A program made the position numbers and the translations under genes. Shown here piece after piece: positions 52,739-60,803 of a stretch of DNA of 64,000 nt. The DNA is from Novakomyces olei. Taxonomy: Eukaryota. The stretch covers positions 434,001 to 498,000 of the forward strand of contig JADEYG010000003.1 in NCBI GenBank assembly GCA_016906335.1. The letters run 5' to 3'. The notes beneath the pieces are model-generated. The model did not search any database and was not told the DNA's origin. It saw only the letters and a program-made list of their open reading frames with translations. Position 1 is the stretch's first letter; the number at the start of each line of letters is the position of its first letter.

Positions 52739-53207
52739 GGTGAGTGATATGGGATGAGAATGGGGATTAATTGGCTTATTTATACAATACGAAAACCTAA
52801 TCCACAGTGCACATGGCTACTGTGAATAGTCTAATATATGGATGGGCCATACTATTCCGGCACTATACCAAAGATGCGCCTGTATACTTGTTTCTGCCTT
52901 TATACGCAGCACGCCGTACCTGAACCATAGTATGGCTATACATTACTCTAATTCCTTTAAACTTTGTTTAAACTTCTCTTTAACTCCTCTAACTCTGTCT
53001 TTAAGCCCATACATTAATCCCATTTTTAATCCCAACATTAATTCCAGCCTTAATTCCAGTATTTAATTCCAACATTGTTCCAACTTTAATTCCAACATTA
53101 GTATCGGTATTTAATTCCAACACTAAACATTATTCCACCTTTAATTCGTTCATTATTCCACACTACGCAGCATTGCTTGACAAATATTATGTATAAAAAG
53201 ATATAGA

Positions 53208-53232
53208 TCACGTGACCTGGAACGCTTATAAG
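53208..53232 (+). promoter_or_regulatory. E-box TCACGTGAC plus TATA-like element in the divergent FBP1 / snoRNA-host promoter
   Basis: TCACGTGAC at 53208-53216 and CTTATAAG at 53225-53232, ~110 nt upstream of the first snoRNA. Confidence 0.4.
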
Positions 53233-53333
53233 CAGAGTGAAAAATTCTGGCAGGAATACATTAGGCCTTTCCGTCGCGAGGCAAAGTCGCGACAGGCGGC
53301 CAACGAGACGGCCAACGACGTCGTATAACACAT

Positions 53334-53427
53334 TTCGAGGATGATCCAATGACCAATTTCAAACTAGAGTATCTGAGGCTTTTGAACAGCTTGTGATCTC
53401 AAAAGTTTTGCACGTCAGTCTGAGTTG
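53334..53427 (+). ncRNA. snR78: Box C/D snoRNA, snR78 homolog (LSU Um2421 in yeast numbering)
   Basis: Box C AGGATGA 53338; guide CAAACTAGAGT complementary to LSU ACUCUAGUUUG; D' CTGA 53373; D CTGA 53420. Confidence 0.88.
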
Positions 53428-53546
53428 GAAACTGCGCCGTTATCGTCTCGTATGCCGCCTGTCAGAGTGTGCCTGCTTTCACGACGGCCAATGCCTTGAG
53501 ATTAGGTGTTTGCTGTTTAAAAGTTTTAGGTATGTTTTTCTTTTTT

Positions 53547-53640
53547 GGGCAATGAAGAAATCAAACAAAATGGAATTACCGACTGAAGGAGGAAACTCCC
53601 TGACGAAAATTCTGTGCTGCAAATACTCATTCCTGAGCCC
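53547..53640 (+). ncRNA. snR77: Box C/D snoRNA, snR77 homolog (SSU Um578)
   Basis: Terminal stem GGGC/GCCC; box C ATGAAGA; guide TGGAATTACCG complementary to SSU CGGUAAUUCCA; D' 53583; D 53633. Confidence 0.9.
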
Positions 53641-53752
53641 AACTCTTGTCTTTTTTTTTTTTTTTTTTTTTTTGGGTATTTTATATATTTCGTTTTTAGA
53701 TTTTCTTTTACCTCTCTAACTTTCAAGGTAAGTTTGCTTTGCGTTAAAGGCC

Positions 53753-53831
53753 GCCGCAAGATGAAACGCACTGGGCACTGAGTGACTCGTTGAAGAAATG
53801 CTACTGGGCCTAGAAAACCCTGTCTGAAGGC
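53753..53831 (+). ncRNA. snR76: Box C/D snoRNA, snR76 homolog (LSU Cm2197)
   Basis: Box C AAGATGA; guide GCACTGGGCA complementary to LSU UGCCCAGUGC; D' 53778; C' TTGAAGA; D 53824. Confidence 0.88.
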
Positions 53832-53942
53832 TATGGCCTAGCGCTGCTGTATTGCCTTTCTTGTTCTGACAGTATTTAGTTCACTGGGCTGCGTAGTTTG
53901 ATACGGAGGTAAGTAGTAAACTAGAAATTTTACGCGGCAAGC

Positions 53943-54023
53943 TTGGTTGATGATTTCTGATGACGAGTCCGATATTTCGTGACGACAACACATTTTTTTA
54001 CCATTCATGCCTTAGCTGACTCG
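53943..54023 (+). ncRNA. snR75: Box C/D snoRNA, snR75 homolog (LSU Gm2288)
   Basis: Box C TTGATGA; guide GATGACGAG; D' CCGA; C' GTGACGA; extra element CCATTCATGC; D CTGA 54016. Confidence 0.9.
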
Positions 54024-54142
54024 CTTGCCAGCATTTAAAATTGCGTTTTGTCAACGATTTTATTACTTTTTTGCTAATAGTCAAGTCAGATGATTATATG
54101 GTTGGTATGACATTTATGCTCTTCAAAAGGGGGCGCGGCCAT

Positions 54143-54218
54143 AGTAGGATGATAGCATTTTCAAAAGACAAGCATATGTCAGATCTTTGGAAATGAAGTT
54201 AACTTTGAGGTCTGAACT
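54143..54218 (+). ncRNA. snR74: Box C/D snoRNA, snR74 homolog (SSU Am28)
   Basis: Box C AGGATGA; guide AGACAAGCATATG complementary to SSU CAUAUGCUUGUCU; D' CAGA; D CTGA 54212. Confidence 0.92.
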
Positions 54219-54370
54219 TTGAGTAACGCCCTCTTGCAAGTTTATGAGCTTTTTGCTTTGGCATATTAACGACTACAGACACAAATCGTCTCCTTATATA
54301 AATATGTATATATATTGCTTATCAATCACTCGAGGTATGTTTGTGAAATTAGGTATTCAAGGCCTTTAAA

Positions 54371-54465
54371 GCTACAGTGATGAATTACGATTAAAATCTC
54401 ACGACTGTCTTTTGAGTCGGGCAAAAAGCTCGATAGTGAAACAGTCATAATCCAGTAGACTGAGC
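54371..54465 (+). ncRNA. snR73: Box C/D snoRNA, snR73 homolog (LSU Cm2959)
   Basis: Box C GTGATGA; guide CTCACGACTGTCT (one mismatch to LSU AGACCGUCGUGAG); D' TTGA; D CTGA 54460; expected position in the cluster order. Confidence 0.85.
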
Positions 54466-54706
54466 AAGCTTTAAAGGGCTTTTACTCGCCTTTAATATGC
54501 TTTTATGCAACGCTAATATTTCAGGTCTTTAAGCTTGTCAAGTTTAGAAAATGGGAATGGCTTTATTGCTTTGGTCATTTAATAATGAGCTTCGTAACAT
54601 TTGACTGACTTCTAAAACCATTACATTACAACAACAGAAAACAATAAAAACATTAATAAAAGCAATGTAAAGATTGCATCGAATCATAGATATAAACATG
54701 CAGCAG

Positions 54707-58181: not shown

Positions 58182-60803
<2,622 letters not shown>

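Follow-up and report, generated by a model that had tools for sequence, protein, structure and literature searches.

Predicted introns for snR77 and snR76 that abut without an exon base between them in a snoRNA host gene of Novakomyces olei

Introduction

How two introns could each deliver a small nucleolar RNA when no exon base is left between them is the question raised by a short sequence on the plus strand of a Novakomyces olei contig. At positions 53712-53733 of the window, by which we mean the whole 64,000-nt stretch of DNA that was analysed, a direct read of the sequence gives CTCTCTAACTTTCAAGGTAAGT. Within it, at 53714-53733, a branch motif (CTCTAAC), then an AG and then GTAAGT occur with 0 bases separating the two introns, and the site lies between an snR77-like and an snR76-like box C/D snoRNA of fungal cluster I. 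Fungal non-coding snoRNA hosts retain their introns, since every box C/D snoRNA is excised from a lariat of its own.

Sites at which AG directly precedes GT, with regeneration of a donor, are familiar from Drosophila and vertebrates as ratchet points, where they subdivide introns of tens of kilobases. The first-pass annotation of this DNA started from the premise that AG|GT sites are described mainly in long animal introns; that premise is outdated, since a catalogue of 2013 already covers exon-less abutting introns in fungal snoRNA clusters I-III (PMC3596301). In these clusters, Luo et al. (2013; PMC3596301) report at least 61 exon losses that left introns abutting one another as "complex introns," and their ESTs and RT-PCR gave 5'-to-3' stepwise products only. 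In D. hansenii, Donovan et al. (2016; PMC5033589) describe an exon of size zero between snR41 and snR70; for Candida they report zero- and one-base exons and nested splicing. A zero-length exon was identified from spliceosome-bound RNA ends and RT-PCR in S. pombe SPNCRNA.445, the host of snoRNA61 (bioRxiv 10.1101/226894, 2018), and a 375-nt intron of C. neoformans BOT1 is reported to contain a zero-nucleotide exon that divides it into parts of 210 and 165 nt (bioRxiv 10.1101/224170). The evidence given for zero exons in other fungi thus includes RT-PCR, ESTs, RNA-seq and spliceosome profiling (PMC3596301; PMC5033589; bioRxiv 10.1101/226894 and 10.1101/224170). Because these fungal precedents are published, abutting snoRNA-host introns are a feature already established in fungi, and not mainly a phenomenon of long animal introns.

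Results and Discussion

The region from 53250 to 54650 on the plus strand is probably a non-coding host gene corresponding to fungal snoRNA cluster I, with an snR78-like snoRNA followed by snR77, snR76, snR75, snR74 and snR73. The order of this cluster that is described as conserved among fungi is snR78-77-76-75-74-73-72 (PMC3596301). Matches to the Rfam families snR78, snoR77Y, snoR118/Afu_513 (for snR76), snR75, SNORD27 (for snR74) and Z161/228 (for snR73) follow one another in the cluster I order on one strand, all plus, and snR72 was not found after snR73 in the host cluster. The only member that scores above the Rfam gathering score is snR75 (53945-54021; 57.4 bits), and the names of the other snoRNAs derive from sub-threshold matches, conserved guide words and their order. 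The snR78-like snoRNA (53334-53430), whose second guide corresponds to that of plant Z122, matches snR78 with 27.5 bits and snoZ122 with 27.6 bits, both below gathering. The snR77-like box C/D snoRNA (53546-53644) carries the guide TGGAATTACCG plus CTGA and matches snoR77Y below gathering, with 33.4 bits and an E value of 0.0012. The snR76-like box C/D snoRNA (53754-53830) has two matches below gathering, one to snoR118 (35.7 bits), which is a member of clan CL00071, the clan of the snR76 family too, and one to Afu_513 (26.1 bits). The two remaining matches, also below gathering, are those of the snR74-like snoRNA at 54143-54218 (SNORD27, 28.2 bits) and of the snR73-like snoRNA that begins at 54370 (snoZ161_228 of clan CL00056, 27.7 bits), for which box D was placed by eye at 54460-54463. 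Five of the six snoRNAs lie in a predicted intron of their own with a canonical donor, branch and acceptor. The coding potential of the region is low, the longest ATG-initiated reading frame on the plus strand between 53150 and 54750 being 55 amino acids and located inside the first predicted intron.

In the exon-intron model, all on the plus strand, exon 1 extends to 53529, carries the snR78-like snoRNA and ends with TAG (53527-53529). Intron A (53530-53727; 198 nt), which contains snR77, would use the donor TAG|GTATGT, the branch CTCTAAC (A at 53719) and an AAG acceptor, and it includes an uninterrupted run of 23 T residues. Intron B (53728-53879; 152 nt), which contains snR76, would use AAG|GTAAGT, the branch TTCTGAC (A at 53869) and a TAG acceptor. 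It is followed by a 29-nt host exon (53880-53908) and then by intron C with snR75 (53909-54085; 177 nt), for which we predict the donor GTAAGT, the branch TGCTAAT (A at 54077) and an AAG acceptor, with an alternative AG at 54089. Intron D, with the snR74-like snoRNA (54105-54278; 174 nt), has a predicted donor GTATGA, branch TATTAAC (A at 54269) and acceptor CAG; the corresponding signals of intron E, with the snR73-like snoRNA (54335-54524; 190 nt), are GTATGT, CGCTAAT (A at 54516) and CAG. The predicted exon lengths are therefore 0 nt between introns A and B, 29 nt between B and C, 19 nt between C and D (15 nt if AG 54089 is used) and 56 nt between D and E. The sizes of 29, 15-19 and 56 nt that had been proposed for the host exons are thereby reproduced, and the same is true of the claim that the branch spacing at the junction resembles that of the other introns, the branch A lying 8, 10, 8, 9 and 8 nt from the G of the AG in introns A to E, respectively.

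The five predicted introns share a common build, each having a YTRAY branch 8-10 nt before its AG and exactly one snoRNA. With the box positions read directly off the sequence, the donor lies 22, 30, 39, 41 and 42 nt from box C in introns A to E, and box D lies 82, 42, 58, 55 and 53 nt from the branch. The run of 23 T residues (53651-53673), which is located between snR77 and the branch, makes up part of the 82-nt gap in intron A. Branch-to-AG distances are similarly short, at 9, 9, 8, 6 and 18 nt, in five plausible coding introns of the window, which were selected by eye among 62 loose ORF-joining candidates, most of them surely false.

At the junction of introns A and B, the CTAAC at 53716-53720 lies within CTCTAAC, its branch A is 53719, and the first AG downstream of it is that at 53726-53727. 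This AG is part of the acceptor AAG (53725-53727), which directly adjoins the donor GTAAGT (53728-53733) on the plus strand, so that the abutment of AG and GT and the upstream branch expected of a zero-length exon are present at 53719, 53726-53727 and 53728. The first-pass annotation had described a branch, an AG and a GTAAGT with no base between the last two, and on re-reading its coordinates were exact, as were those it gave for a TTTTTAG ending at 53699 and for TTCTGAC with its A at 53869. The arrangement differs from that of a stwintron, or nested intron, in that each of the six signals is complete in the precursor and none overlaps another. It likewise does not correspond to an animal ratchet point, which subdivides a very long intron, given that introns A and B together measure 350 nt.

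The usual consensus for a 5' splice site already includes an AG in front of GT, and four of the five host donors have it. The informative element at the junction is for this reason the CTAAC at the right distance rather than AG|GT itself. A search of both strands of the 64-kb window for CTAAC-N(2-20)-AGGTAAGT returned 1 match, at the junction, compared with a mean of 0.02 in shuffled sequences, of which 2 of 100 contained at least one match; AGGTAAGT by itself occurs 5 times, against 1.59 expected. When all 19 AG|GTRNGY sites in the window were considered, a YTRAY with its A positioned 6-12 nt before the G was seen at two, namely at the junction (CTAAC) and at 53907 (a weak TTGAT). The chance per site of such a placement is approximately 0.057 for any YTRAY and approximately 0.0033 for CTAAC. 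We conclude that the anatomy of the junction is non-random.

The weak TTGAT (A at 53901) is located in the 29-nt exon, 7 nt before an AG|GTAAGT at 53907-53914. If it were used in preference to TTCTGAC and the TAG ending at 53879, a second zero-length exon would result; at a chance of 0.057, this placement may be a coincidence.

The reading that we consider most likely, with a probability of roughly 60%, is that the junction is a zero-nucleotide exon and that snR77 and snR76 are each freed from a lariat of their own. One alternative is that intron A ends at the TTTTTAG at 53699, with a non-consensus branch and the T run, and is followed by a conventional 28-nt exon (53700-53727), in which CTCTAAC would belong to the exon and its likeness to a branch would be fortuitous. 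The T run and the subsequent TTTTTAG (53651-53699) do look like a polypyrimidine tract and an acceptor, a 28-nt exon would be in line with the other host exons of 29, 19 and 56 nt, and the AG at its end would need no explanation beyond the donor consensus. Against this, there is no YTRAY between 53604 and 53713, and the interval from snR77 to AG 53699 holds only the T run and AT-rich sequence of low complexity, which leaves that AG without a branch. Furthermore, the other four host introns all use a YTRAY 8-10 nt before the AG, and the chance of a CTAAC at the spacing observed here is approximately 0.003. We therefore regard a 28-nt exon as unlikely.

Another scenario is that 53530-53879 constitutes one intron of 350 nt with two snoRNAs, in which case the internal branch, AG and GTAAGT would be unused relics of a recent exon deletion, and the snoRNAs would be separated by a different route, or the production of one would be inefficient. 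The final spliced product would be identical to that of two successive introns, and minor exon-skipping products that span at least two snoRNA introns are reported for cluster I of N. crassa and of C. parapsilosis. However, the internal CTAAC and GTAAGT are perfect and not decayed, and in a single intron snR77 would lie approximately 230 nt from the branch and snR76 approximately 230 nt from the donor, unlike the snoRNAs in the other three introns. Nor does the spacer offer a hairpin for endonucleolytic separation. The sequence between the two snoRNAs (53645-53753) contains no hairpin of the RNase III (Rnt1) type; its folding z-score is −0.54, and it was matched or exceeded in folding by 46 of 200 shuffled sequences. 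The spacer thus appears unstructured and would not provide a hairpin-cleavage route by which the two snoRNAs could be parted. A single two-snoRNA intron seems to us about as improbable as the 28-nt exon.

One could also imagine that the donor at 53530 is the only active one and is spliced either to the acceptor at 53727 or to that at 53879, in which case snR76 would come from a retained stretch or from a long lariat and not from its own. Such a scheme, in which the first donor alone functions and is paired with alternative acceptors, was left open by Luo et al., whose EST and RT-PCR products fit it equally well (PMC3596301). On the other hand, the GTAAGT at 53728 matches the donor consensus in full and is positioned 30 nt before box C, as other donors are, and spliceosome profiling in S. 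pombe is reported to show cleavage on both sides of a zero-length exon (bioRxiv 10.1101/226894). We consider this the least probable of the three alternatives.

If the junction is indeed a zero-nucleotide exon, then the question is how the two introns would be removed. An internal exon that once separated the snR77 intron (53530-53727) from the snR76 intron (53728-53879) would have been lost, with the consequence that the AG of intron A now touches the GT of intron B. The spliceosome would excise intron A by means of the branch A at 53719 and AG53727, and in so doing would join the TAG at the end of exon 1 (53529) to GTAAGT. On the sequence, a donor is regenerated by this first splice, TAG|GTAAGT replacing the AAG|GTAAGT present before it, and the new donor would be equally good. 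Intron B would be excised next, through the branch A at 53869 and AG53879, and each lariat would then be debranched and trimmed by exonucleases down to a single snoRNP, as in the debranch-and-trim pathway for intronic snoRNAs that has been summarised elsewhere (PMC5033589).

Because none of the signals overlap, either order of splicing is formally possible. A mere 9 nt, however, separate the branch A of intron A from the donor of intron B, and joint occupancy of the two sites is thus unlikely, which leads us to expect a 5'-to-3' order; intron A is probably released before intron B. Of the zero-exon reading put forward in the first-pass annotation, the structural part stands, in that abutting sites, one snoRNA per intron and a lost exon best fit both the sequence and the published cases. 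What we infer from this sequence anatomy is the splicing itself, that is, the usage of the sites, the order of the two reactions and the formation of two lariats.

The snR78-like snoRNA seems to differ from the other five in being exonic. Upstream of it we found no donor of the form GTRNG[T/C/A], and there is no YTRAY anywhere between 53200 and 53597, which suggests that it resides in exon 1. This arrangement resembles that of Y. lipolytica, for which one exonic snoRNA in cluster I is reported. The end of exon 1 (TTTTAG|GTATGT at 53529|53530) was considered as a second zero-length exon and was rejected, given that no branch motif exists between 53200 and 53597. The sequence from 53426 to 53529 folds no better than its shuffled versions.

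We also looked at the same junction in metagenomic fungi. A scan of metagenomes with an snR76 motif recovered at least 117 loci, at least 95 of them unique, and none of the matches listed was close to the window, the best blastn matches being 23-75 nt long and located inside the snoRNAs. An snR77 lies upstream of snR76 in at least 11 loci from approximately seven lineages, a number that is the union of two rules, each of which identified 7 of the 118 matches listed. The order snR77 (Afu_300)-snR76 (Afu_513)-snR75 was confirmed with Rfam in five of the seven scanned loci among the matches listed; L008 and L101 gave no Rfam match for snR77 (Afu_300), and the assignment of snR77 in these two is based on the guide motif.

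The lengths of the exon between snR77 and snR76 in these distant, unrelated fungi were read by eye with the same rules. The exon is approximately 49 nt in L008/L033 and 25 nt in L023/L092/L113, and it is also 25 nt in L025. Three readings are ambiguous, with approximately 10-52 nt in L102, 3 or 24 nt in L101, and 0, 5 or 11 nt in L069/L096. In L054 (2078-2057, minus strand) a single nucleotide remains, the sequence being ...CTGACcattggctag|t|GTGAGT. This range of lengths places the zero exon of the host gene at the end of a continuum. A loose composite of a branch and AG|GT was no more frequent on the snoRNA strand, with 9 occurrences, than on the opposite strand, with 11 (95 unique loci among the matches listed; 235,904 nt), which indicates that loci of this kind do not generally carry abutting signals. 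The AG|GT sequences upstream of snR76 in L002/L031 and in L019/L055 were rejected as zero exons; no snoRNA lies upstream of them, and they are ordinary exon ends.

Among the published systems, the clusters of Luo et al. are like the host gene in belonging to the same gene family and in showing one snoRNA per intron, exon loss and an inferred 5'-to-3' order of splicing, although the experimental cases they describe come from clusters II and III (Y. lipolytica, D. hansenii and Euascomycetes), whereas the host gene corresponds to cluster I (PMC3596301). The same work describes Schizosaccharomyces species that lack snR76 in cluster I, in contrast to the host cluster, which has it (PMC3596301). The C. 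parapsilosis group and D. hansenii likewise combine a zero-size exon with recursive splicing in non-coding snoRNA hosts, the RNA-seq support being theirs (PMC5033589). These cases, however, concern clusters II and III, and in some of them the introns share a G (a nested arrangement, with an exon of negative size), while the signals of the host gene are intact and do not overlap (PMC5033589). In S. pombe SPNCRNA.445, as described, a short snoRNA-host intron of similar size (336 nt, versus 350 nt here) is split where a 3' splice site adjoins a 5' splice site, but it represents another cluster in another lineage. C. neoformans BOT1 differs in that it encodes a protein and would have no snoRNA rationale for the split (bioRxiv 10.1101/224170).

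Animal ratchet points share with this junction the regeneration of a donor after the first step. They split long introns, whereas the two halves here measure 198 and 152 nt, and the split in this gene probably serves to provide one snoRNA per lariat.

We tentatively suggest, at somewhat less than even odds, that the exon between snR77 and snR76 was lost independently in a fungal lineage outside the published surveys, and that, with the branch adenosine of one intron 9 nt from the donor of the next, spliceosome assembly on the two introns would be mutually exclusive and strictly ordered. The splice signals of the host gene look unlike those of Yarrowia. If so, the junction would be a compact natural substrate with which to follow the use of an exon-less donor by the spliceosome. 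As it stands, it represents one more cleanly built case of a known trend, in which the exons of fungal snoRNA hosts shrink to a few bases or none; ordered splicing could be tested on it as a small substrate, and it opens no new question. It is also of use in annotation, for gene callers would either fuse introns A and B or invent an exon between them.

Upstream of the host gene, at 53192-53216 on the plus strand, are putative promoter elements, namely TATAAAAA at 53192-53199 and the E-box CACGTGAC at 53209-53216. Just upstream of these two elements, at 53001-53122, units of the TTAATTCCA type form an array that repeats approximately every 12 nt. Its exact 9-mer occurs 5 times compared with 1.04 expected, a count reached in 0 of 100 shuffled sequences, and the array may be a promoter element common to the host gene and a divergent fructose-1,6-bisphosphatase-like gene. 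Elsewhere in the window, a long microsatellite of the type (TTTATTTATT…) occupies 59317-59796 on the minus strand, where the ORF listing shows LFIY repeats. It is presumably intronic and is flanked by two ORF blocks that, by eye, form a putative copper amine oxidase-like gene.
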